Source: Escherichia phage Cyrano
Sequence record: OV696614
Length of the DNA: 64,000 bases
Reading direction: 5' to 3' (one strand)
The translations under genes and the position numbers were made by a program. How positions within the stretch are numbered: the first letter of the stretch is position 1; each line of letters opens with the position of its first letter. Under the pieces are notes generated by a model. That model saw only the letters and a list, made by a program, of their open reading frames with translations. It ran no database searches and had not been told where the DNA came from. Shown in pieces: positions 5,914 to 48,650 of the stretch.

Positions 5914-6187
5914 TAAAGAATTATGGCGCTTGTTGAGGAAGTCACTCCTCTTACGCACTTTGTTTTGCCATGCCGGCAGTTAGCTTCTGCCTTTGACTAT
6001 TCATGCGGCAACCCCGCATTTCGCCACAATGGGCAATTCACTTTTATGGAATAAACTGGCCGTTGTGTCGATTTAATTAGCATGGCCTTACCATGCTAAT
6101 TTATTCAACTTGTACAATCCTACAAATCTATCCACTCAGGCTTACACCGTCTTCGTTATTGTAGAAATGAGGATCATCAGCGTTGAA

Positions 6188-6403
6188 TCAGCTTAGAGCA
6201 ACGACATTTGCTGCTGCTGGGCCTTTAGCACCATTCTCGATAGAGAATTCGACCTGCTGGCCTTCTTCCAAAGTGCGGAAATTATTACTCTGAATTGCCG
6301 AAAAATGTACAAAAACATCTTTACTGCCATCAGCAGGAGAAATAAAGCCAAAGCCTTTATCAGAGTTAAACCATTTTACTAAACCAGTCATTTTATTAGA
6401 CAT
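6188..6403 (-). CDS. cold-shock protein, CspA family
   Basis: 71 aa starting [21 protein letters not shown]...; RNP1/RNP2 motifs (KGFGFI, VFVHF); very similar to enterobacterial CspA-family proteins by recall. Long 5' leader typical of csp genes. Confidence 0.85.
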
Positions 6404-6732
6404 AGATATTACCTTCTTAATTTTGTGAGCCACATAGTGCGGCGAGAATTTGATCTGTATAGATTGGGACTTACTTAGGCACTTAAGGAGGAGACTCACG
6501 AAGAAGGGAAATCAGAAGATAACACTGAACTGAGACTGCTTTACTAAAACTGCTTACATAAGGTCTGTCTTGCAAACCAACGATGCTATTAACGCATACC
6601 CCTTCTTTTCATGCAACCTTTATTTTTCAAAGATAACTAATTTTTGTCACCATTGGTTTAGTAAACGTTAACGAACCAGACGATGCCAGACACCTTTACA
6701 GAGAACAGATGCCCGCCAATTGGCGGGCATCA

Positions 6733-10685: not shown

Positions 10686-13025
10686 ATGGCAAAAGGAAAA
10701 TCCGCACTGGCACTTGCTCTGAAAAAGAAAATCGGTAGCAACGACGAAATTCAGAAAGTAACTCATTGGATTGACACAGGCTTTCCTCCGTTAAACAAAG
10801 CTATTTCCGGTCGTTACGATGGCGGTTTCCCATGTGGTCGTATCGTAGAAGTATTCGGGCCACCAAGCGCGGGGAAATGTGTTACCGCAGACACCATGCT
10901 GCTGACGGAGCGTGGAATGGTAACAGTGAAAGAACTGTTTGAGATTGAGGGGCACAAAGCAACATGCACTACTCGCGATGTAGAGCATAACGTTGGACTC
11001 ATCAATGAAAATGGCGTGATAGAGAAGACCTCACACCTGACATGGAACAACCGTCGCAAATTCAAGCGTATTAAGCTGGCATCAGGCGGTTATATCGAGG
11101 CTACGTTCCGTCACCCAATCCGTGTGGTTGACGACTTAGGTAATGTCGTCTGGCGACATGCTGAAAAAATCAGTGTAGGCGACACGATTCCTTCAATGGT
11201 TGGCACACATCAATTCGGCGATCAGCACCTGGATGCCAATATCGCAAAACTGATGGGCTATTTAATTGCTGACGGATACGTGGCCTCTGAAAATTCAGTG
11301 AATTTTTCTAACACAGATCCTTTCATCAAGGATGAGTACTACCGCCTCATTTCGCTGGTATCAGACAAGATGCCAGTTACGAGAAAACATAACGGCTCGG
11401 AAGACCATGTGCTGTTTAGCAAAGAGGTGCGTTCGCTGCTTTTTAAAGAGTATGGTCTGGAGTATGAGAAAGCTGCTGGCAAGCAGGTTCCGTTGAGTGT
11501 GCGTCGCGCCAATAGCGAGGCTCAAATTGCATTCCTTCGCGGCTACTTTGAGCTGGAATGCCACGTCAATGATGGTCGCTGCATTGAGGTTGTGAGCGCG
11601 AGTGGGCTGCTGCTACAGCAAATTCGCCTCATGCTCCTGAATCTGGGGATTACGTCAACTATCTCTGAAAAACACGTCGCGGGTTATGAAAATACATATT
11701 ACCGGCTGTCATTCAGTGGCTCTAATTACGACCTTTTTCTGTCAACGATTGGTTTCGAATCTCCGGCACGTTTATCAGTGGCAACCAAACGGGACATTGG
11801 TTTTGACCGCACTTACTCAGGCTATGTTCCGCACATCAGCGGCTTAGTGAAATCACTCTACGAGTCGCTCACCAAGACCACCCGTGAAGACTACGCTCTG
11901 GTAGACCACGTTATTGGCCGCGGCGATCGTGTCGGAATAGACAAACTGCGAGAAATCTATGTCTCCTTCATTGGCAGAAAGAATCGTTTTAACGAGCATC
12001 TGTTTGCACAACTGGCAGCGGTAATTGGCTCTAACTTGTTCTACGACGAAGTCGTGGCTATTGAGGAAGGTGAAGCACCAACGTTCGACGTAGCGATGCC
12101 GGAAACACACTCTTTCTGGTCTAACGGGATTATCAGCCACAACACATTCCTTGCAACAGCAGCGATGATCTCCGCTCAAAAACAAGATGGTCTGGCGGTA
12201 TTCCTCGATCATGAAAACAGTTTTGACGTTGGCCTGGCTGTAGCCAATGGCCTGAACGCAGATGAGGATGACGGTCAGTGGGTATACAAGCAGCCAGATA
12301 CCTTCGAAGACTCTGTAGAGTTGATCGGCACAATACTTAAATTGGTTCGTGATGAAGAGCTTATCCCCGAATCAGCACCTATCTGTATCGTGGCTGACTC
12401 TCTTGCGTCTATGGTTCCGAACTCCAAAGCCGAGAAGTTCGAAAAGATGGCTGAAGGCACTGCCAAAGACAAAGATCAGCTAAACATGAACGACAATACG
12501 GCACTGGCTCGTGCGACGAGTGCGAACTTCCCTACTCTGGCTTTGTGGGCACGCAAATACAACGCCTGCATCATCTTCTTGAATCAGGTTCGCACAAAAA
12601 TCGGTGTAATGTTTGGCGACCCTACTACGTCGCCAGGTGGAGATTCACCGAAGTTTTACGCTTCTGTGCGCATCCGTCTCGGTGCATCGGTGATGAAGGA
12701 TGGGAAAGAGAAGATCGGCCAGGACGTAGGCGCAGAATGCATCAAAAACAAAGTTGCACCACCGTATGGCAAATGCACCTGGAAATTCTACTTCGATCCT
12801 ACTCGTGGCCTCGACGTTATCGAGTCGCTCGTCGAGTACATGCTGGAAGAAGGATACCTGCCAAAGAACGCCAGCGGGCGAGTTGAAATTGGTGACAAGA
12901 AATACACCAAATCGCAGATCGTCGACATGTATCGGGAGAAGCCATTAGCAGAAATCATTGCTGCGTTACAGGCGATAGATGACCGACGAGAGAAGACATC
13001 ACCAACAGAAGAACTAGAAGATTAA
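10686..13025 (+). CDS. recA: RecA-family recombinase interrupted by an intein
   Basis: N-extein GRIVEVFGPPSAGK and C-extein TFLATAAMISAQ rebuild a RecA-like P-loop (GPPSAGKT). C-extein contains IFLNQVRTKIGVMFGDPTTSPGGDSPKFYASVRIR, very close to the RecA L2 region. Exteins total about 357 aa. Confidence 0.85.
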   Translation: MAKGKSALALALKKKIGSNDEIQKVTHWIDTGFPPLNKAISGRYDGGFPCGRIVEVFGPPSAGKCVTADTMLLTERGMVTVKELFEIEGHKATCTTRDVEHNVGLINENGVIEKTSHLTWNNRRKFKRIKLASGGYIEATFRHPIRVVDDLGNVVWRHAEKISVGDTIPSMVGTHQFGDQHLDANIAKLMGYLIADGYVASENSVNFSNTDPFIKDEYYRLISLVSDKMPVTRKHNGSEDHVLFSKEVRSLLFKEYGLEYEKAAGKQVPLSVRRANSEAQIAFLRGYFELECHVNDGRCIEVVSASGLLLQQIRLMLLNLGITSTISEKHVAGYENTYYRLSFSGSNYDLFLSTIGFESPARLSVATKRDIGFDRTYSGYVPHISGLVKSLYESLTKTTREDYALVDHVIGRGDRVGIDKLREIYVSFIGRKNRFNEHLFAQLAAVIGSNLFYDEVVAIEEGEAPTFDVAMPETHSFWSNGIISHNTFLATAAMISAQKQDGLAVFLDHENSFDVGLAVANGLNADEDDGQWVYKQPDTFEDSVELIGTILKLVRDEELIPESAPICIVADSLASMVPNSKAEKFEKMAEGTAKDKDQLNMNDNTALARATSANFPTLALWARKYNACIIFLNQVRTKIGVMFGDPTTSPGGDSPKFYASVRIRLGASVMKDGKEKIGQDVGAECIKNKVAPPYGKCTWKFYFDPTRGLDVIESLVEYMLEEGYLPKNASGRVEIGDKKYTKSQIVDMYREKPLAEIIAALQAIDDRREKTSPTEELED
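10878..12143 (+). mobile_element. intein with double-motif LAGLIDADG homing endonuclease, inserted in the RecA P-loop
   Basis: In-frame 422-aa insert starting with Cys (CVTADTML) and ending in His-Asn (IISHN) before Thr+1; LAGLIDADG-type motifs LMGYLIADGYV and FLRGYFELECHV. Confidence 0.75.
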
Positions 13026-16253: not shown

Positions 16254-17309
16254 CTATTTGCGAGTCTTTGCCTTGCGCAACTCTTCGAGAAGCGCCAGTT
16301 CTTCTTTACTCAACATGACCATTTTGCCTTCTTTTTCGTCAGGCACAACGTCGATAATGTCATCTTGATTCTCATCTGGGAGGCTATATTCCGTCTCATC
16401 ATTATCGATTTTTGTTGATATTTGTGCCTGGCGTAACTTTGGCCGCCTATAGTGGATGACGAAGTAGACCGAGTTTCCGCGCTTAACTTCCGTGTAATCG
16501 AGATATCCTATCTCTCGCAGCTGTTCCATAGCCTTTCTTACCGTCGCATTCTGAGTAATAGTGCGACTTGTCAGATTAAGTCTGGCGCGTAAACGGGCTA
16601 GTGATATTGGTGCCGGATCAGGCGGCAAACTTTCAATAAAAGTATAAAGCGCCTGAGCGGATTCTTTTCTTGAGAGTTCGTTTATAGCCCGGAGTTGCAG
16701 AAGAACCTTTTTGTCGAACTGGTAGAGTTCGAAAATCTTGGGATCTGCTTTCAGTTCGACCGTATCGTGCTTGACACTATATTTTGCCGTTTGCACAAGA
16801 TGCGTTACGTAAAACTCATCAGAGCCTTTGCTACGGAACGAGATGGTATTTGTGGCAATACGGCTTAGCGAACTGTCCAGGCGTTTGCGTAACTTCGCTG
16901 ATGACCTGGCGGTCGGAATGCCACACAGCCTTACAAACTCAACGAACGGCAACGTGACAGTATCGCCAACGACCTTGTGTTTGGCAAACGCGTGGATTAT
17001 TCCCACCCACGTTTTAAAGTCGTTATCCATATCAAGCCGAAGGCCAGAGATCCTTATGTCTTCGTACCCTTCGGCTTTTGCCAGAGACAGCTGTTTGAGT
17101 TCAGCAGAGGCATCCATAGAGACCATTTGCCCCTTTCTTCCTCTGGATGTCGATTTCAGCGTCGGAACGAAGAGGCCCAGACGCATCAAAGCAACAGGCT
17201 GAACAGTGTTATTAGTGTTAGGAACCAACGTAACAACTTCGCCTGTCTTTTTATCTGTTTCTGAAAATGCTTCAACGATCGCTATGTTTTTATTGCCGTT
17301 TTCGCTCAT
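16254..17309 (-). CDS. repA: iteron-binding replication initiator (RepA/Rep_3-like)
   Basis: 351 aa flanked on both sides by iteron arrays; C-terminal half has a winged-helix-like pattern typical of Rep_3 initiators (…ALYTFIESL…[12 protein letters not shown]…[19 protein letters not shown]…). Confidence 0.65.
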
Positions 17310-17474: not shown

Positions 17475-17966
17475 GATCATGTCTGAAGGCAGATGGCACA
17501 ACGGTTTGAGGTGGGCGGGGATCTTATTGGGTCTTTATGGGTCTCTTTGGTTCTCTTTGTGATCTGAATTACTGGATCGGGCCTGTGGATAAAAATCAGA
17601 GGATTTCAAGAACAGGTAACTCTACTCTTCTGTGGATATTTAAGGACATAAGAATCATGACTAAGAGTAGAGTTTAAAATATATCTATGTATATCAGTAT
17701 GTTAATGAAGAATTAAGTCATTAAGTTATCCATAAAAGACAATGTGCTCTACTCTCTACAGTGGATATATACAGCTCTCCAGAGTGGTTGTTTTACTCTT
17801 CATAGCGGTTATTCAGCTCTCTACAGAGGTTTCTTTGCTCTCCATAGTGGATGGCAACACCCTTTCAGACCAGTAACCGCAACGGCTAGAGGCGATCGGG
17901 GATCTCTTTGGATCTTCTATTTGATCTTACTTGGGATCTCTTATTTGGATCTATCCAGTGGATAAC
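17475..17966. promoter_or_regulatory. origin-like region: DnaA boxes, AT-rich segment, second degenerate iteron set and GATC clusters
   Basis: Perfect DnaA box TGTGGATAA at 17585-17593 and near-matches at 17631, 17726 and 17958; degenerate 21-22 bp iterons at 17744-17870; six GATC sites within 17894-17951; a related degenerate block at 17510-17578. Confidence 0.55.
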
Positions 17967-22925: not shown

Positions 22926-23495
22926 ATGAGTAAAAAAATCAGCGTAGTTGGTGTTGATCCCTCAATGAGCAACTTTGGGCTTGCTGTGGGCACTTTAGAC
23001 CTTGAGACGGACGAACTTGAGATTCACGGCCTTACTCTTGTTGAGACTAAAGCGGGGAGTAACAAAAAGACCGTTCGTGTGAACAGTGACGATCTGCGCC
23101 GCGCCAGTGAAATATGGCGTGTTGCGAAGCCAATCATTGATAAGGCAAATATGGTTTTTTGTGAGCTACCGGTTGGGAGCCAAAACTCTCGTTCGCAGAC
23201 GTCTTACGGTATTTGTATCGGTGTACTTGCGTGTGTGGATAAGCCATTGATCCAGGTTACTCCAAACGAAATCAAGCATTTTGTCGGCAATAAACTTACT
23301 ACATCGAAAGAAGAGATTATCCAGTGGGCTACGAAAAAACACCCTAAAGCACCGTGGCTGCGTCGTAAGCAATCTGGACAGGATGTTCTCGTGAACAAAA
23401 ACGAACATTTGGCTGATGCGGTGGCTGCCATCCATACCGGTATGCAAACAGATCAGTTCCGCCAGGTGCGCGATGTTCTTAAGTCTCTCATTTGA
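22926..23495 (+). CDS. RuvC-like Holliday junction resolvase (putative)
   Basis: N-terminal VVGVDPS...FGLAVG resembles the RuvC first catalytic Asp region; later FCELPVG and ADAVAAIH could supply the remaining acidic/His residues. Confidence 0.5.
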   Translation: MSKKISVVGVDPSMSNFGLAVGTLDLETDELEIHGLTLVETKAGSNKKTVRVNSDDLRRASEIWRVAKPIIDKANMVFCELPVGSQNSRSQTSYGICIGVLACVDKPLIQVTPNEIKHFVGNKLTTSKEEIIQWATKKHPKAPWLRRKQSGQDVLVNKNEHLADAVAAIHTGMQTDQFRQVRDVLKSLI

Positions 23496-23568: not shown

Positions 23569-25884
23569 ATGATAAGCATCGTAAAACGTAACGGCCAAAC
23601 AGAGCCGTTATCCGAAGAAAAATACAACCGCGTCGTAATGTATGGCGTAGAAGGCATTCGTGGTGTAAGCGCATCCGCTGTAGCAATGGGAGCTGCGGCC
23701 AGCATTTTTGATGGGATTACCACCAGCCAGTTGCATGAGGCTTTGGTTAAATCTGCCGCTGATTTGATCTCACCAGAAGCACCAAATTACTCACAGGTGG
23801 CTGCCCGCCTGAACATTTTTAAAATCCGCAAAGATGCCTTCGGTCGTTACGACTATCCGAACTTCTACCAACACATTGTCAAGAACGTTAACAAGGGCGT
23901 TTATGACAAGGATTTGCTGACACATTATTCGTTTGAAGAGATCGAAGAACTCGGCAATTACATTAAGCCGAAACGTGACGATCTTTTTGGCTATGCAGCT
24001 ACGGTGCAGTTGCAAAGCAAATACCTCGTTCAAAACCGTGTTACTGGTGAGATTCATGAGGGGCCGCAACATATCTATATGCTGGTAGGCATGTGTCTGT
24101 TCCAGAATTGGGAAGACGACTGCGCTGGCAAAACACGTATGGAGATGGTCAAAGGTTTCTATGACGTTACAAGTACGTTCAAACTGTCTCTGCCCACACC
24201 AATCATGGCCGGCGTCCGTACTCCAACCCGTCAGTTCTCCAGTTGTGTGCTGATTGAGTCTGGCGATAGTCTGAAAGGGATTAGTGCAGCTTCAGCCGCA
24301 ATTATCGACTACGTTTCACGTCGTGCTGGAATTGGTATTGGTTTTGGCCGTATCCGTGCGCTGGGCAGCGAGATCCGCAATGGTGAAGCCACCCATACTG
24401 GAGTTATTCCATTCCTGAAGCATTTCCAGACGGCTGTTAAATCTTGTTCGCAAGGTGGTGTTCGTGGTGGCGCAGCAACAGCGTTTTACCCGATCTGGCA
24501 TCTTGAAGTTGAAAGTCTGCTGGTGGTGAAAAATAACCGTGGTATTGATGAAAACCGCGTTCGCCATCTTGATTACGGCGTCATGAGTAACCGTCTAATG
24601 TACCGTCGACTCGTCAGAAGCGAGAACATCACTCTGTTCAGCCCGCATGATGTGCCTGATATGTACGAAGCCTTCTTCACAGACCAGGAGCTGTTTGAAA
24701 AGCTGTACCATAAATACGAAGCCGATGATTCAATTCGCAAGAAGTCAGTACCTGCCATTGAGCTGTTCTCATCTCTGATGCAGGAACGAGCGTCCACGGG
24801 CCGAATTTATATTGCGAACGTCGATCATATTAACGAGCATGGCGCTTTCATTCCCGCTCTTGCACCTGTTCGCCAGTCAAACCTGTGCATGGAGATCACT
24901 CTACCCACTCGTCCACTGGCATTTACCGACGACCCGAACGGTGAGATCGCGCTATGCACTTTATCCGCTTTTAACCTCGGAGCCATCCGTTCACTGGAGT
25001 CTCTTAAAGAGGTGGCGTTCTATGCCGTTGCTGCACTGGATTCGTTACTGGATTATCAAGACTATCCGATGGAGGCAGCCGAAGTGCCTGCCAAAGCTCG
25101 TCGTAGCTTGGGAATTGGTGTAACCAACTTTGCTTATTACCTGGCAAAGAATGGCGTTCGTTATTCTGATACCGCTGGCAATAAACTGGTGCATGAAACG
25201 TTCGAAGCTATCCAGTATTACCTTCTTGATGCCAGCTGCCGACTTGCTGAAGCAAAAGGTGAGTGTGACTGGTTTGAGCAGACCAAGTACGCAATTGGTC
25301 AGTTGCCGATCGACCATTACCGTTCTTCATTAGACGAAAGTGGCGAAACCAACTTTGAGTTAAAGATGCCGTGGGAAGAACTGCGTGAACGTATTGCAAA
25401 ATACGGCCTTCGCAACTCCACACTGACGGCACAAATGCCATGCGAGACTTCCAGCCAGATCACTAATTCCACCAACGGCATCGAACCGCCTCGTGGACCG
25501 GTGTCGGTGAAATCTTCTAAGGACGGCATCGTTAAGATGGTCGTGCCTGAGTTTGAAAAACTGAAGGAACAGTATGAATACCTGTGGGATATGCCGGACA
25601 ACCGCGGCTATCTGACAAAGGTGGCGATCATCCAGAAGTTCTTTGACCAGGCTATTTCAGCCAATACCAACTATGACCCTTCTCGCTTTGAAGGCGATAA
25701 AGTCCCAATGATGACGCTACTGTCAGATTTGCTTCTCGCCTACAAGATGGGAGTTAAAACGCTTTACTACCACAACACCAGAGATGGGGCAGGAAAGCGT
25801 GATGACGACGAACCGCAGAATCCACTGACGCAAGCTGTAGCCGTCGAGCCAGAAGATGAGTGCGACGGAGCCTGCAAAATCTGA
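23569..25884 (+). CDS. nrdA: ribonucleoside-diphosphate reductase alpha subunit (class Ia)
   Basis: 771 aa with long conserved blocks recalled from E. coli NrdA (LVQNRVTGEI, PTPIMAGVRTPTRQFSSCVLIE, SQGGVRGGAATAFYP, NLCMEI, C-terminal ...CDGACKI). Confidence 0.9.
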   Translation: MISIVKRNGQTEPLSEEKYNRVVMYGVEGIRGVSASAVAMGAAASIFDGITTSQLHEALVKSAADLISPEAPNYSQVAARLNIFKIRKDAFGRYDYPNFYQHIVKNVNKGVYDKDLLTHYSFEEIEELGNYIKPKRDDLFGYAATVQLQSKYLVQNRVTGEIHEGPQHIYMLVGMCLFQNWEDDCAGKTRMEMVKGFYDVTSTFKLSLPTPIMAGVRTPTRQFSSCVLIESGDSLKGISAASAAIIDYVSRRAGIGIGFGRIRALGSEIRNGEATHTGVIPFLKHFQTAVKSCSQGGVRGGAATAFYPIWHLEVESLLVVKNNRGIDENRVRHLDYGVMSNRLMYRRLVRSENITLFSPHDVPDMYEAFFTDQELFEKLYHKYEADDSIRKKSVPAIELFSSLMQERASTGRIYIANVDHINEHGAFIPALAPVRQSNLCMEITLPTRPLAFTDDPNGEIALCTLSAFNLGAIRSLESLKEVAFYAVAALDSLLDYQDYPMEAAEVPAKARRSLGIGVTNFAYYLAKNGVRYSDTAGNKLVHETFEAIQYYLLDASCRLAEAKGECDWFEQTKYAIGQLPIDHYRSSLDESGETNFELKMPWEELRERIAKYGLRNSTLTAQMPCETSSQITNSTNGIEPPRGPVSVKSSKDGIVKMVVPEFEKLKEQYEYLWDMPDNRGYLTKVAIIQKFFDQAISANTNYDPSRFEGDKVPMMTLLSDLLLAYKMGVKTLYYHNTRDGAGKRDDDEPQNPLTQAVAVEPEDECDGACKI

Positions 25885-42815: not shown

Positions 42816-43468
42816 TGACCACCGTTAACAATAAGAAATGCTACCCAAGCGAGAAATATCTTAATGAGCTGATCACCAACATTGAGTTTGCTGCAAGGGC
42901 ACCAGTTGAAGTCGTGAGAGCGATTGCAGCAGAGCTACAGAAGCACCGTAAGGCCTATGCCAATACAGCCGCATCTAAGGATGGTTGGATAAGCTGTAGT
43001 GAGCGAATGCCTGTAATCGGCGAGCTAAATTGGAGAACTGGTTTTCCTTTGCTGATTACGTGTGAGATCGGCGTTATACCTGCTTATTACGGCTTTGTGA
43101 GCGTTAATGGTGATAGGCATTATGGCTTTATGGAGAGTCTTAAATACGGAGACGATAACGGCAACCATCCTCAAACTAATGAATATGGTCTGATTAGCAA
43201 TGTCACACACTGGATGCCACTACCAGAACGCCGCAGGAGTCGAACAGTGAATAATGCAGAGTTATTTCAGAAAATATCGGCTCTCGCGACTGAATGCCAC
43301 GCTATAGCATCTGAGCTTGATGTTGGCGATGAACGAACCGAGATGTTCGAAATATACAGTGTGCTGCGCAATCTCTGTCGGCGTGGCTACGCCACTCAAG
43401 TAGGGCGAATGACTAACCCACTACTCTCATCCTGTGATGAGGATGACTCGGATGAGGATGACGAATGA
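42815..43468 (+). CDS. DUF551-like prophage protein (putative)
   Basis: GWISCSERMP motif resembles the conserved tryptophan/ERLP block of DUF551 proteins common in enterobacterial prophages; acidic C-terminus. Confidence 0.4.
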   Translation: MTTVNNKKCYPSEKYLNELITNIEFAARAPVEVVRAIAAELQKHRKAYANTAASKDGWISCSERMPVIGELNWRTGFPLLITCEIGVIPAYYGFVSVNGDRHYGFMESLKYGDDNGNHPQTNEYGLISNVTHWMPLPERRRSRTVNNAELFQKISALATECHAIASELDVGDERTEMFEIYSVLRNLCRRGYATQVGRMTNPLLSSCDEDDSDEDDE

Positions 43469-44130
43469 TGCATAAATCAGTAGCCGGTGAGTTTCAGAAG
43501 GAAGTCGATAATACTACCGTTCTATTGGACGATATTTTAAGCATTCTCGCGCTTCTTGAGGCTGGCGATTGGTCAGAACATTGCACTAAAACGGAGTTAG
43601 GCGGTCGGCTTGAAAGAGAGATTACACGACTTATTGGTGATGCGCAGGAAGCTACAGTCACTAGTTATGAGTTAATCGCTGAAGCCTGGCGTTTGATGGA
43701 TGGACAAGATCCTAAAACCAGCGATTGGCATAGCAAGGCTTCGAAGTATTTAAATTCCGATAGGGTAGAAAAAGTTGATGATGTGAAACCGAAGCCAGTA
43801 GACCACGGTTTCCGCGATAACTGCGAATGCTCTAGTTGCCAGACCACGGCCCGTATTTGTTCCGAATTGACAGATAAGTCCAGCCTAATCTACGAAGTTA
43901 ATGTAGGCGGTAATACATGGGTCGAATGCACAAGAGCTGCATACGTAAGAGCAAAAGACAAGGGTGAATTAACCAGAGTTGTTACCAATCACCCAAATAA
44001 TGAGCTTAAAGATCACCAGATTCGAGAACTGGTGAACGAGTTGAGAGATATTGCGGTTCAGTACCACGGAACGCAGCAATTGCGGGAGAAGATTGCCAGA
44101 GCAGTGAACAACTCAGTCCGTAAAAAATAA
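43465..44130 (+). CDS. hypothetical protein
   Basis: 221-codon ORF, last gene of a coupled plus-strand operon. Confidence 0.45.
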   Translation: MMHKSVAGEFQKEVDNTTVLLDDILSILALLEAGDWSEHCTKTELGGRLEREITRLIGDAQEATVTSYELIAEAWRLMDGQDPKTSDWHSKASKYLNSDRVEKVDDVKPKPVDHGFRDNCECSSCQTTARICSELTDKSSLIYEVNVGGNTWVECTRAAYVRAKDKGELTRVVTNHPNNELKDHQIRELVNELRDIAVQYHGTQQLREKIARAVNNSVRKK

Positions 44131-44571
44131 GCAATAGTACGATAAAGAGGCCCCATGCTCTTGATGGGGCCTGTAGCAACTAGCGTTATGGACGCTGGTT
44201 TACGTACTCAATGATCGCTTTGATAATCGCGAACATCGGCGGCACGATTTTGAACAGTAAGTTAACCATAACAGGCCTCACTTAGTTTTATCGCGCCTAG
44301 CTGCAAATACCTTTGGGCTTGCCTTTGCAGTTGCAATATCTGTAGTCGCCAGATACTTACGGCACGATTTCGAGTTAAGGTAAGGTTTTAGAGTCACCAA
44401 AAACCTGGACTTAAATCTTCTTTGAGAACAACGATGTTTAGTAAATGGTCATTATTACCTGGTATGACCACTCAACGTTTCTTGATGAATCCAGTACATT
44501 CGGTTAATCTTAATTCAGTCGCCAGATACTTATGGCTCAGGAACAGAGCCGCAAACTCTGTTTCCTTTTAA

Positions 44572-44600
44572 AAAGCCCAGCCTAGTCAACTGGGCTTTTT
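44572..44600. terminator. bidirectional terminator-like hairpin
   Basis: AAAAAGCCCAG-CCTAGTCAA-CTGGGCTTTTT: hairpin flanked by an A-tract and a T-tract. Confidence 0.5.
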
Positions 44601-44895
44601 AATGTCTATTTTTAACCCAATGAACCTTCAATACCGCAACATCAGTGTCTTGCGAATTAAGATAGTGTGTATAGGTTATGCATGCAAGTGCATAACTCTG
44701 TGGATAACTCAGGAAGGAAAAAGTAGCTTCCGCGCAATTTAGGCCAGACAAGGCTTTCGCAAAAGTCAACAGAGAGAAAAAATTTGTTAAAAATAACGTT
44801 TGTTGGAATTGTATATATTTATGCCTTTCAATAGTTAGCATCTTATTAACATCTTTTTTAAGAGATAGAGTTCAAAAATATATAGCTTCAACATA

Positions 44896-44915
44896 TACTG
44901 TATGTGTATACAGTA
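44896..44915 (+). promoter_or_regulatory. LexA (SOS) box upstream of the UmuD'-like gene
   Basis: TACTGTATGTGTATACAGTA is a perfect CTGT-N8-ACAG palindrome, 17 nt upstream of the start codon. Confidence 0.7.
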
Positions 44916-44931
44916 TTAAGAGGCGAGTATT

Positions 44932-45321
44932 ATGGGCTTCCCTTCTCCTGCGGCGGATTATGCTGAGAGCCGTATTTCTCTTGATCAGCAGATAATTAGA
45001 CATCCTTCAGCGACCTACTTCATGAGGGCAGCTGATAGTCATCATCGTGAGGGAATATTACAGGGTGCATTGCTGGTGGTCGATTCCTCACTTACCCCGG
45101 TTGATGGTTCTCTGCTTGTATGCGCTCTGGATGGGGAATATCGCGTAAAAAGATACCGGAAGTACCCACGTCAGCATCTGGAGGATTTAAGAACCGGTAA
45201 GAAGGAAGCATTGCCAAAGGATGACGATGGATGCACGGGCAGCAATGCCGTGTTTGGTGTGATCACTCACATTATCAACGACGCAAGAAGTGGCGAGTTT
45301 GATGATTGTCCCGTGATGTAG
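44932..45321 (+). CDS. humD: UmuD'-like protein (HumD-like, S24 LexA-type peptidase fold)
   Basis: Starts MGFPSPAADY..., i.e. at the position where UmuD is cleaved to UmuD'; HPSATYFMRA and VFGVITHII blocks match UmuD; in-frame stop 15 nt upstream; no umuC gene follows. Confidence 0.75.
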   Translation: MGFPSPAADYAESRISLDQQIIRHPSATYFMRAADSHHREGILQGALLVVDSSLTPVDGSLLVCALDGEYRVKRYRKYPRQHLEDLRTGKKEALPKDDDGCTGSNAVFGVITHIINDARSGEFDDCPVM

Positions 45322-45358: not shown

Positions 45359-46459
45359 TCACACTGCGCGGAATGCGATTTCGCCAGGTATTACTTCACC
45401 TTGCCAATACATTTGGGCAGCAACGCGATCTGCGAGGTCACGATAAATAGCCGTAAATTCGCTATCTGGACGACTAATAACGGTTGGTGTTCCGTTATCC
45501 AGATCTTCACGAAGAGAGATATGAAGTGGCATTTGGCCTAACAACTGCGTGTTGTATTTCTCGGCCAGTTTCTGTGCGCCACCGGTGCCAAAAATTGGCT
45601 CGTGATGACCGCAGTTACTGCAAATATGCACACTCATGTTTTCGACGATACCCAGTACCGGCACTTCGACTTTTTCGAACATCACAATGCCTTTCTTCGC
45701 ATCGATCAGCGCGATGTCTTGCGGCGTAGTTACCACAACCGCACCAGTTACAGGAATGTTCTGCGCCAGCGTCAACTGAATATCACCAGTGCCCGGCGGC
45801 ATATCGAGAACGAGATAGTCCAGATCAGGCCACAGTGTTTCCTGCAACATCTGCATCAGCGCCTTGCTGGCCATCGGTCCACGCCACACCATCGCATTGT
45901 CGTCAGTGACCAGATAACCAATTGAATTGGTTGCCAGGCCATGAGACATGATAGGTGCCATGTGAGTACCGTCAGGTGAGGTTGGACGTTGGTTTTCCGC
46001 GCCCAGCATGGTTGGAATTGATGGCCCGTAGATATCGGCATCCAAAATACCAACTTTCGCACCTTCAGCCGCCAGCGCCAGCGCCAGGTTTACCGCCGTG
46101 GAGGATTTACCCACGCCGCCTTTACCGGAGCTGACCGCAATGATGTTCTTCACGCCATTAATGCCTGGTTGGTTTTTGACGCGCTTAAGCGTGGCAATGT
46201 TGTACGACAGCTTCCAGTCAATAGCCTTTGCGCCAGTGATACGGAGCAGATCACCACTACATTGCTCTTTCAGATCTTCAAAAGGCTTATTCCACACGAA
46301 AGGCATGATTAGTTCGACATGCAGTGTGTCATCCATCAACGCAACATGGTGTAACGCTTTAAGCGTAGTCAGGTTGTGTTTCAGGGTTGGGTGCTGAAAA
46401 TTAGCCAGCGTACCGGCTACCATTGCTCTCAGGGCATCCGGCGATTTGGACTCGCTCAT
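45359..46459 (-). CDS. apbC: Fe-S cluster carrier ATPase ApbC/Mrp
   Basis: 366 aa with deviant Walker A SGKGGVGKSSTAVNLA and CSNCGHHEP motif; matches the enterobacterial Mrp protein by recall; divergent from metG as on the E. coli chromosome. Confidence 0.9.
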   Translation of the reverse strand: MSESKSPDALRAMVAGTLANFQHPTLKHNLTTLKALHHVALMDDTLHVELIMPFVWNKPFEDLKEQCSGDLLRITGAKAIDWKLSYNIATLKRVKNQPGINGVKNIIAVSSGKGGVGKSSTAVNLALALAAEGAKVGILDADIYGPSIPTMLGAENQRPTSPDGTHMAPIMSHGLATNSIGYLVTDDNAMVWRGPMASKALMQMLQETLWPDLDYLVLDMPPGTGDIQLTLAQNIPVTGAVVVTTPQDIALIDAKKGIVMFEKVEVPVLGIVENMSVHICSNCGHHEPIFGTGGAQKLAEKYNTQLLGQMPLHISLREDLDNGTPTVISRPDSEFTAIYRDLADRVAAQMYWQGEVIPGEIAFRAV

Positions 46460-46616
46460 CCCGTCTCCTTTATTTTAATTTGCGCAATTGTCGCCTTGTA
46501 GTGTACTCCAGCTACGACATTTAATCATTTATGAGAAATGCTGTTATCACATGGCAGACATAAGGCCATTTTGTTACTATCAAGCCCCTTTTCACTACAA
46601 AGAAGTAATGCCTACT

Positions 46617-48650
46617 ATGACCCAAGTCGCGAAGAAAATTCTGGTGACGTGCGCGCTGCCGTACGCTAACGGCTCAATCCACCTCGGCCATATGCTGGAG
46701 CACATCCAGGCTGATGTCTGGGTTCGTTACCAGCGAATGCGCGGCCACGAGGTTAATTTCATCTGTGCCGACGATGCCCACGGTACGCCGATCATGCTGA
46801 AAGCACAGCAGCTTGGTATCACACCGGAGCAGATGATTGGCGAAATGAGTCAGGAGCATCAGACTGATTTCGCAGGCTTTAACATCAGCTATGACAACTA
46901 TCACTCGACGCACAGCGAAGAGAACCGTCAGTTGTCTGAGCTTATCTATACTCGCCTGAAAGAGAACGGTTTTATTAAAAACCGCACTATCTCTCAGTTG
47001 TACGACCCGGAAAAAGGCATGTTCCTGCCGGATCGTTTTGTGAAAGGCACCTGCCCGAAATGTAAAGCGCCAGATCAATACGGCGATAACTGTGAAGTCT
47101 GCGGCGCAACATATAGCCCGACTGAATTGATCGAGCCGAAATCGGTGGTTTCTGGCGCTACCCCGGTAATGCGTGATTCCGAACACTTCTTCTTTGATCT
47201 GCCTTCTTTCAGCGAAATGTTGCAGGCATGGACCCGCAGCGGCGCGTTGCAGGAGCAGGTGGCAAACAAAATGCAGGAGTGGTTTGAATCTGGCCTGCAA
47301 CAGTGGGATATCTCCCGCGATGCGCCTTACTTCGGTTTTGAAATTCCGGACGCGCCGGGCAAATATTTCTACGTCTGGCTGGACGCGCCGATTGGCTACA
47401 TGGGTTCCTTCAAGAATCTGTGCGACAAGCGCGGCGATACCACCAGCTTCGATGAATACTGGAAGAAAGACTCCACCGCCGAGCTGTACCACTTCATCGG
47501 TAAAGATATTGTTTACTTCCACAGCCTGTTCTGGCCTGCCATGCTGGAAGGCAGCAACTTCCGCAAGCCGACCAACCTGTTTGTTCACGGCTATGTGACG
47601 GTGAACGGCGCGAAGATGTCCAAGTCTCGCGGCACCTTTATTAAAGCCAGCACCTGGCTGAATCATTTTGACGCTGACAGCCTGCGTTACTACTACACTG
47701 CGAAACTCTCTTCGCGCATTGATGATATCGATCTCAACCTGGAGGATTTCGTTCAGCGCGTGAATGCCGATATCGTGAACAAAGTGGTTAACCTGGCCTC
47801 CCGTAATGCAGGCTTTATCAACAAGCGTTTTGACGGCGTGCTGGCAAGCGAACTGGCTGACCCGCAACTGTACAAAACCTTTACTGATGCCGCTGAAGTG
47901 ATTGGCGAAGCATGGGAAAGCCGTGAATTTGGTAAAGCTATCCGTGAAATCATGGCATTGGCTGACCTGGCTAACCGCTATGTCGATGAACAGGCTCCGT
48001 GGGTGGTGGCGAAGCAGGAAGGACGCGATGCCGATCTGCAGGCGATTTGCTCTATGGGCATTAACCTGTTCCGCGTGCTGATGACGTACCTGAAGCCGGT
48101 ACTGCCGAAACTGACTGAACGTGCAGAAGCATTCCTGAATACAGAACTGACCTGGGATGGCATCCAGCAACCGTTGCTGGGCCATAAAGTGAATCCGTTC
48201 AAGGCACTGTATAACCGCATCGATATGAAGCAGGTTGAAGCACTGGTGGAAGCATCCAAAGAAGAAGTGAAAGCCACAGCCGCACCGGTAACTGGCCCAC
48301 TGGCTGACGACCCGATTCAGGAAACTATCACCTTTGACGACTTCGCCAAAGTTGACCTGCGCGTGGCGCTGATTGAAAACGCAGAGTTTGTAGAAGGTTC
48401 TGACAAACTGCTACGCCTGACGCTGGATCTCGGTGGTGAAAAGCGTAATGTCTTCTCAGGCATCCGTTCTGCTTATCCAGACCCACAGGCACTGATTGGT
48501 CGTCACACCATTATGGTGGCTAACCTGGCTCCGCGTAAAATGCGCTTCGGTATCTCCGAAGGCATGGTGATGGCTGCTGGCCCCGGCGGGAAAGATATCT
48601 TCCTGTTAAGCCCGGATGCTGGTGCTAAACCAGGCCACCAGGTTAAGTAA
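46617..48650 (+). CDS. metG: methionyl-tRNA synthetase
   Basis: 677 aa starting [26 protein letters not shown] (HIGH motif), KMSKS motif present, zinc knuckles CPKC...CEVC; near-identical to E. coli MetG by recall. Start set at ATG 46617, not the listed upstream 46488. Confidence 0.95.

Follow-up and report, generated by a model that had tools for sequence, protein, structure and literature searches.

A putative type I toxin-antitoxin module with dinQ/agrB-like architecture on an Escherichia coli phage-plasmid

The dinQ/agrB locus of Escherichia coli K-12 (Weel-Sneve 2013, PMC3567139; Kristiansen 2016, PMC5066626) has been modeled as working by mutually exclusive structures in the leader of its toxin mRNA (PMC5066626). 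DqlB/agrB of plasmid pOXA-48 is toxic, is repressed by its small RNA (sRNA) through a pairing that compensatory mutants prove, and acts as an addiction module; homologues are carried by 99% of IncL, 67% of IncX, and 53% of IncI plasmids (PMC12365149). Here we describe a locus of similar design in a 64,000-nucleotide (nt) stretch of Escherichia phage Cyrano (sequence record OV696614), which we call the window and whose numbering is used throughout. The segment at 44143-44600 is very probably a phage-plasmid-borne type I toxin-antitoxin module built on the dinQ/agrB architecture, as judged from its sequence and from the described systems, with toxicity ascribed by analogy. Both this locus and dinQ/agrB have a 27-amino-acid open reading frame (ORF) behind a long structured leader, and a divergent sRNA (84 nt here, approximately 84 nt in K-12) with its seed at the 5' end, followed in the same order by a stem-loop, an A-rich linker, and a terminator. 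A preliminary description of the window had taken the 800 nt upstream of its SOS-regulated gene to be gene-free; inside them, however, lie the conserved 27-amino-acid ORF (44269-44186, minus strand) and the sRNA gene (44517-44600, plus strand), neither of which is annotated in any public record.

The two genes are connected by a 20-nt direct repeat, AGTCGCCAGATACTTA(C/T)GGC, found at 44344-44363 and 44517-44536 with one mismatch. A 20-nt repeat with at most one mismatch arose in none of 200 dinucleotide shuffles of the region (mean 11.7, maximum 15). The second repeat named in the preliminary description, CGGCACGATTT(T/C)GA at 44240-44253 and 44360-44373, is also there, but is not significant alone, since 13 of 200 shuffles (6.5%) reach 14 nt; only the 20-nt repeat exceeds chance. 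Since the toxin and sRNA genes point away from each other, the RNAs read from the two copies of a direct repeat are complementary: nt 1-20 of the sRNA pair with mRNA positions 44363-44344 over 20 contiguous positions, 19 of them Watson-Crick and one G·U. The suggestion that the repeats mark an antisense RNA regulator therefore held, one 20-nt copy being the 5' seed of the sRNA and the other its target, whereas the immI-type immunity function or SOS link attached to that suggestion did not.

Relatives were gathered by two routes, blastn and a conserved leader pattern, for a total of 35 unique sequences. With blastn, divergent copies turned up in annotation-free gaps on unrelated plasmids from Kosakonia, Klebsiella (IncFIB), Enterobacter, and Citrobacter, in which the module forms a self-contained unit; the Kosakonia copy adjoins repA on a conjugative MOBF/MPF_F plasmid. 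The leader pattern added 35 more loci from IMG/VR and GTDB genomes. When structure and covariance were analyzed across the homologous regions, as the preliminary description had suggested, the sRNA hairpins were found to covary, and seed and target to change together. In the 24-pair intermolecular helix, evaluated over 10 distinct loci, 10 of the 24 pairs had changed on both sides, compared with a shuffle mean of 2.8 (0/500), and 96.7% of cells were paired, compared with 30-44% when the partners were slid. All one-sided changes were to G·U.

The relatives fall into at least four seed/target classes (..AGATACTTA.., ..AGATACATT.., ..GGTTAACAAC.., and ..AGTGTTTTAC.., plus AGCTGCC variants), with 19-25 contiguous base pairs between cognate partners versus no more than 13 between classes. 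These specificity classes argue for a dedicated cognate seed-target pair. Further, the internal differences between the two repeat copies of a locus have a direction: the leader copy always has C or A where the sRNA copy has T or G, so that pairing is preserved as G·U, and this direction fixes which strand is the mRNA and which the sRNA. Such an asymmetry is what RNA-RNA pairing with this strand assignment would predict; neither a protein-binding repeat in DNA nor simple gene conversion would be expected to produce it. By the criterion of sequence comparison, then, seed and target co-evolve, the ORF is a constrained coding sequence, and the sRNA gene has a promoter, a structure, and a terminator.

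The sigma-70 promoter of the putative antitoxin sRNA (44482-44510, plus strand) consists of TTGATG, 17 nt, and TAATCT, followed after 6 nt by a +1 A at 44517. This layout is kept in all relatives, whose promoters read TTGAAG or TTGTAG, 17 nt, and TAAGCT or TAAGAT at the same position. The predicted 84-nt transcript (44517-44600, plus strand) comprises the seed (nt 1-20), a stem-loop (44540-44565), an A/U-rich linker, and a terminator hairpin (44570-44600) with a U5 tail; the corresponding sRNAs of relatives are 81-86 nt long. Its fold has a z-score of -5.5, and among 16 distinct sRNAs 96.7% of structure cells were paired, versus 32-56% with the partners slid, with compensatory changes in both hairpins. 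The covariance model R1 gives the window sRNA 91.6 bits, a score that is not independent because the window is among its training sequences. The strong bidirectional hairpin of the preliminary description was recovered by a terminator scan at 44568-44602 (both strands), with perfect 13-nt arms (44568-44580 and 44590-44602) flanked by A5 and T5; it is the terminator of the plus-strand sRNA, and can also stop leftward transcription from an nrdA-like promoter to its right. A plus-strand ORF of 45/49 amino acids (44422-44571) that overlaps the sRNA and its promoter was rejected, as it is not kept as an ORF in divergent relatives.

The presumed toxin ORF (MVNLLFKIVPPMFAIIKAIIEYVNQRP; 44186-44269, minus strand) has 27 codons and a stop, and every one of the 35 unique relatives retains it, with ATG or GTG as the start codon. 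In the window, the ATG is at 44269 and the stop at 44188-44186, and a Shine-Dalgarno (SD) sequence, GAGG (44279-44276), precedes the ATG by 6 nt. A terminator scan placed the intrinsic terminator of the mRNA at 44148-44172 (minus strand; 9-bp stem, 7-nt loop, then CTTTATCG), and its hairpin is retained in relatives despite loop deletions. The ratio of nonsynonymous to synonymous substitution relative to the window copy is 0.04-0.3, indicating purifying selection, and relatives with the same peptide type differ from it by 6-9 synonymous and 2-3 nonsynonymous codons. The peptide is hydrophobic to amphipathic. It has no match in Pfam, NCBIfam, or PHROGs (nor do other small ORFs), an exact look-up in a protein collection returned it only under the name "uncharacterized", and we found no description of its family in the literature searched.

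Two paralogous peptide types occur among the relatives (aligned in A1), type A (MQMLLLFLKLAHPVTVIIMTLLGFWKNR) and type B (MVNLL.K..PP...), as one or two tandem small ORFs. The window has type B only, and loci L007 and L011 have type A only. In L006 (1293-1500), L008, L009, L010, and L017, a type A ORF (MQMLLLFLKLAHPV...) is followed by a type B ORF, each with its own SD, behind a single leader and sRNA target, an arrangement that would make a two-toxin operon. Two other minus-strand ORFs were considered and set aside: a 40-amino-acid frame (44278-44400) is the toxin leader itself, and an 80-amino-acid frame (44599-44841), which matches phrog_28987 (function not known), is truncated or frameshifted in three of five close relatives, with mostly nonsynonymous change.

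Within the 5' untranslated region (UTR) of the toxin mRNA, the direct repeat and the intermolecular covariation define an sRNA target site at 44344-44363 (minus strand, as are all leader elements), ending 75 nt upstream of the AUG. Element e1 (AAAUCGUGCC; 44361-44370) is one copy of the second repeat and shares 3 nt (44361-44363) with the 5' side of the target. Element e3 (AAUCGUGCC; 44241-44249), spanning codons 7-10 of the ORF, is the other copy, and element e2 (GGCGCGAU; 44290-44297), just 5' of the SD, can pair with either e1 or e3. Between e2 and the target lies a stem-loop, CUGCAAA ... UUUGCAG (44301-44330), seen on folding with the mRNA, kept in every relative, and used as the search pattern; farther upstream, the leader alignment revealed the motif AAGUCCAGG (44404-44412), with UUGGUGA after it. 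The folded toxin mRNA has a z-score of -3.5, and its minimum-free-energy structure pairs e2 with e3, enclosing the SD and the AUG.

In the window, each of the two alternative pairings of e2 is computed at -14.3 kcal/mol. Across the 15 loci examined, e2 is predicted in every case to pair both with e1 and with a site 12-34 nt into the first ORF (-10 to -14 kcal/mol), and G-to-A and C-to-U changes in these pairings keep them intact. Relatives with a type A ORF have a different e3, ACUCGCGCA, that is still complementary to e2. A second sRNA site considered at UUGGUGAC (44402-44395) was discarded, as it does not covary with the seed in L010. Control of the toxin by LexA was likewise ruled out by the missing box: none serves the toxin promoter, the only CTGT-N8-ACAG in the region being that of the humD promoter.

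By analogy with the described systems, we infer toxicity, a switch among e1, e2, and e3, RNase III cleavage, and post-segregational killing. The minus-strand mRNA, with a leader of about 135-175 nt, would encode the 27-amino-acid peptide as a presumed membrane toxin, and the divergent sRNA, predicted to begin exactly at its 20-nt seed, would pair with the leader 75 nt upstream of the AUG. Pairing of e1 with e2 would leave the SD open. The sRNA, by occupying the target and part of e1 (the 3-nt overlap in the window, and all of the CGUGCC of e1 in several relatives), would free e2, which could then pair with e3 inside the ORF and close the ribosome-binding region. The sRNA-leader duplex is probably an RNase III substrate, and no toxin would be made for as long as the sRNA is supplied. 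Were the element lost, the unstable sRNA would decay first, and the toxin would kill or arrest the cell, resulting in addiction.

We compared this arrangement with dinQ/agrB and with dqlB loci from IncX and IncI plasmids. Measured from the start codon, the nucleotide that faces position 1 of the sRNA is 71-76 nt away in the window family (75 in the window) and 76-79 nt away in dinQ/dqlB. Common to both groups is the leader motif AAGUCCWGG, then GGUG, at corresponding positions; in the dinQ/dqlB leaders, the matching AAGUCCUGG ... GGUGGUG is near the dinQ +44 processing site. Access to the SD in dinQ/agrB is set by mutually exclusive leader pairings, which the computed alternatives of e2 resemble. 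The dqlB/agrB loci (on IncL/M, IncX, IncI, and IncB/O/K/Z plasmids) are likewise plasmid-borne, self-contained, and usually unannotated, with a trans-acting sRNA directed at the 5' UTR, and the N-termini of the peptides are alike (MINLLIIVL in DqlB, MVNLLFKIV in the window peptide).

Conversely, several features set the window locus apart. The sRNA-leader pairing is approximately 34 nt in dinQ/agrB but 20 nt here; K-12 has both agrA and agrB, whereas the window has one sRNA copy; dinQ has a LexA-controlled promoter, unlike the window toxin; and dinQ occupies the arsR-gor intergenic region, whereas the window locus is carried by phage-plasmids and prophages. DqlB has 31 amino acids and scores 72 bits with NF041473, whereas the 27-amino-acid window peptide has no match. 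Copy number varies among the dqlB loci as well: that of an IncI plasmid (L054) has two AgrB-type sRNA copies, 999-1086 and 1245-1332 (58 and 55 bits), like agrA/agrB of K-12, and the IncX dqlB loci, like the window family, have one.

A number of observations weigh against the assignment to this class. At the protein level, six family peptides gave no match to NF041472 (DinQ) or NF041473 (DqlB) at E ≤ 10, with controls at 54 and 72 bits; a profile-profile comparison with hhalign was insignificant (probability 2.5% over 9 columns); and the window peptide, with two Lys, one Glu, and a Pro-Pro pair, is less hydrophobic than DinQ. At the RNA level, a weak reciprocal similarity speaks for the assignment: AgrB (RF02891) is the top Rfam match of the window sRNA and spans its whole length, and model R1 matches the dqlB-linked sRNAs at full length and at their true coordinates with 18-32 bits. 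The AgrB match, however, reaches only 27.6 bits where the gathering score is 40; the sRNAs of six divergent relatives have no AgrB match at E ≤ 1, and dqlB-linked sRNAs score 48-64 bits. Moreover, a terminator-only decoy scores 25.6 bits with R1, so that a terminator alone can give about 25 bits; the model has no match to agrA or agrB of K-12. A minus-strand scan of the window found no convincing sigma-70 consensus promoter for the toxin mRNA, the candidate -10 elements being TAATAAT (44457-44451) and TTTAAG (44415-44410). Finally, covariation could be mimicked if the two DNA copies of the repeat evolved in concert, although this would leave the strictly G·U-directional differences unexplained.

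Homology with dinQ/agrB is thus unproven, because the Rfam score is below threshold and the R1 scores are of a size that the terminator alone can give. The window and dqlB groups were not linked by blastn in either direction, only short leader motifs aligning, and tblastn with the window peptide did not reach the dqlB plasmids. Plasmid peptides named "DinQ" (MIDKAIIVLGALISLLELIRYLLQLMG), which we would provisionally assign to the dqlA type, are unlike the window peptide. The module probably works like dinQ/agrB and may be remotely related to it; membership in the DinQ, DqlA, or DqlB families is not demonstrable.

The arguments seem to us evenly balanced on whether the locus represents a third, undescribed branch of a DinQ/AgrB superfamily, beside dinQ/dqlA and dqlB. 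Such a branch would have (i) its own two-type peptide family, in tandem under one leader in some plasmids, (ii) at least four non-cross-reacting specificity classes, and (iii) a distribution mainly among phage-plasmids of about 105-120 kb and lambdoid prophages of E. coli, always beside humD, as an addiction or exclusion module. If so, the specificity classes would reflect selection against cross-protection between co-resident elements. In a survey of 5426 complete genomes, the module was found in 115, mostly on plasmids of 100-120 kb. Such phage-plasmids occur commonly in E. coli of clinical and animal origin, and little is charted of what stabilizes them; a type I addiction module that had gone unnoticed would help to explain their persistence, and plasmid curing would require that it be neutralized, as shown for DqlB/agrB on pOXA-48. 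The locus would also extend the DinQ/AgrB design to peptides and sRNAs that current hidden Markov and covariance models miss, suggesting that annotation pipelines under-count such modules, and its family offers a natural set of seed/target variants in which to study sRNA-target diversification.

Two other type I systems, zorO/orzO of E. coli O157:H7 (PMC5397157) and tisB/istR-1, resemble the window locus in having a divergent trans-acting sRNA, a 5' UTR of about 170 nt that needs processing, and an sRNA site far upstream of the SD. Their peptides are unrelated in sequence to that of the window. No match to the Rfam families OrzO-P (RF02083) or IstR was found in the window at E ≤ 10; the relative L009 reaches 34.2 bits with OrzO-P, for which the gathering score is 60.

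The peptide and its sRNA might both be real without forming a toxin-antitoxin pair, the peptide being a benign small membrane protein (a moron) that the sRNA tunes, or host mRNAs being the main targets of the sRNA. We consider this unlikely. It would accommodate the charged residues and the Pro-Pro pair, as well as the failure of any toxin model to match, and toxicity is itself an argument by analogy. The architecture, however, is that of the proven toxins dinQ and dqlB; the tight, multilayered repression suggested by a long structured leader with SD-sequestering alternatives is a usual mark of toxic products; the module spreads on plasmids independently, as a unit of its own; and the seed/target specificity classes point to a dedicated cognate pair.

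The proposal of the preliminary description, that the repeats and their RNA serve phage immunity or lysogeny control in the manner of the c4 RNA of P1 immI, acting on antirepressor genes, is in our judgment very improbable. The c4 RNA of P1 is cut from the transcript that also carries its targets, and it governs the synthesis of antirepressor. The likeness is that c4 is also a small antisense RNA of a P1-type element: the window element is phage-plasmid-like, the region recurs at 92% identity in the sequenced Escherichia phage CMS-2020a, and an antisense RNA is indeed encoded. Unlike c4, however, the window sRNA has its own promoter and a divergent small-ORF target, and the only target that covaries with it is the leader of the adjacent 27-amino-acid ORF, not an immunity or antirepressor gene. 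Further, the module is also found on conjugative plasmids that are not phages (the Kosakonia MOBF/MPF_F and Klebsiella IncFIB plasmids), P1 and P7 lack it at the homologous place, no Rfam immunity-RNA family matched, and no LexA box serves the module that would tie it to the SOS response.

That the repeats and the DnaA box instead form a replication origin or an iteron-type protein-binding array is scarcely credible: a perfect DnaA box does lie 4 nt from a weaker one (44687-44707) with direct repeats nearby, but the repeat has just two copies, separated from each other by 173 nt and from the DnaA boxes by 180-350 nt, where such an array should have at least three iterons beside DnaA boxes and a rep gene; G·U-directional differences between copies would make no sense in a site bound as DNA; the block with the DnaA boxes is homologous to the P1 "nrdA-like promoter", which is not an origin in P1; and a Rep3-type initiator is encoded 27 kb away (16254-17309), with a DnaA box at 17584. 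The toxin-antitoxin interpretation of 44143-44600 remains the one we favor, and the DnaA boxes belong elsewhere.

The right-hand part of the gap, 44605-44930 (about 330 nt), is a separate, already-described regulatory region of the P1/P7 type, with DnaA boxes and a LexA-controlled humD promoter; it shares homology with the sequence upstream of humD in P7 (82% identity) and partly with the P1 counterpart. Every motif listed in the preliminary description was confirmed, and the DnaA box and the inverted repeat among them belong to this block, apart from the module. P1 annotations and alignment with P1 and P7 identify two tandem DnaA boxes on the minus strand within 44676-44707: the perfect box TTATCCACA (44707-44699) and the weaker TTATGCACT (44695-44687). 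The inverted repeat TTATGCA-N6-TGCATAA (44676-44695) has the second DnaA box as one of its arms. In the P1 record, the conserved CTTGCAAGTGCATAACT(T/C)TGTGGATAA is annotated as a leftward "nrdA-like promoter" with DnaA boxes, and its -35 element in the window, TTGCAT (44687-44682), adjoins the boxes. A possible leftward promoter downstream of both boxes would combine this element, after 17 nt, with TATCTT (44664-44659). An RNA from it, within the interval 44568-44664 (minus strand), would be about 85 nt long and would end in the same bidirectional terminator as the sRNA; R1 gives it 25.6 bits, probably from the terminator alone.

The SOS-regulated gene to the right, correctly recognized as such in the preliminary description, is humD (44932-45321, plus strand), which encodes a UmuD'-like protein of 129 amino acids (NCBIfam NF051876, 219.8 bits; PHROG 811) and flanks the toxin-antitoxin module without being part of it. 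Its promoter (TTCAAA-17-TATACT; 44871-44915, plus strand) is overlapped by the LexA box TACTGTATGTGTATACAGTA (44896-44915), with CTGT-N8-ACAG at 44898-44913, and the P1 homologue is annotated as a LexA site. Between an ORF of 221 amino acids (43465-44130) and humD, public records annotate nothing, with the exception of one that calls the 80-amino-acid ORF. In P1, hot and lxr are inserted between the nrdA-like block and the LexA box, an insertion absent from the window and from P7. The humD upstream region of P1 (L001, 3155-3997) is split by this insertion, and has no toxin-antitoxin module. That of P7 (L056, 1436-2581) is followed by unrelated sequence and IS903 (1525-2581), again with no module; no humD coding sequence is annotated within the P7 stretch retrieved. 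Since both P1 and P7 lack the module, it represents a separate insertion, placed between the genes of the early region and the humD cassette.

The window is 100% identical to E. coli plasmids of about 105-120 kb, such as pAVS0747-B (NZ_CP124469), and encodes a Rep3-type initiator, DNA polymerase III alpha, an intein-containing RecA, SbcCD-like proteins, and NrdAB. Because of this gene content, together with the plasmid and phage matches, we regard it as part of a phage-plasmid-type element. An 850-bp stretch is also present, at 99.6% identity, in lambdoid prophages at tRNA-Thr. Three perfect DnaA boxes occur in the 64-kb window, compared with 0.5 expected. The two others are both on the minus strand: one (17584-17592) lies in a likely origin region, about 275 bp away from where the minus-strand gene for the Rep3-type initiator (16254-17309) starts, and one (23234-23242) is about 330 bp upstream of the nrdA of the element (23569-25884), echoing the "nrdA-like promoter" block near humD. 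Directly after humD are two full-length housekeeping genes, apbC/mrp (45359-46459, minus strand) and metG (46488-48650, plus strand), both named by RefSeq on pAVS0747-B. The RecA homologue (10686-13025, plus strand) is split by an intein bearing a LAGLIDADG endonuclease domain (Pfam RecA, Intein_splicing, and LAGLIDADG_3). In addition, a full-length cspA thermoregulator 5' UTR is found at 6163-6581 (minus strand; Rfam RF01766, 187.6 bits), suggesting that the element carries a cold-shock-type gene with an RNA thermosensor.

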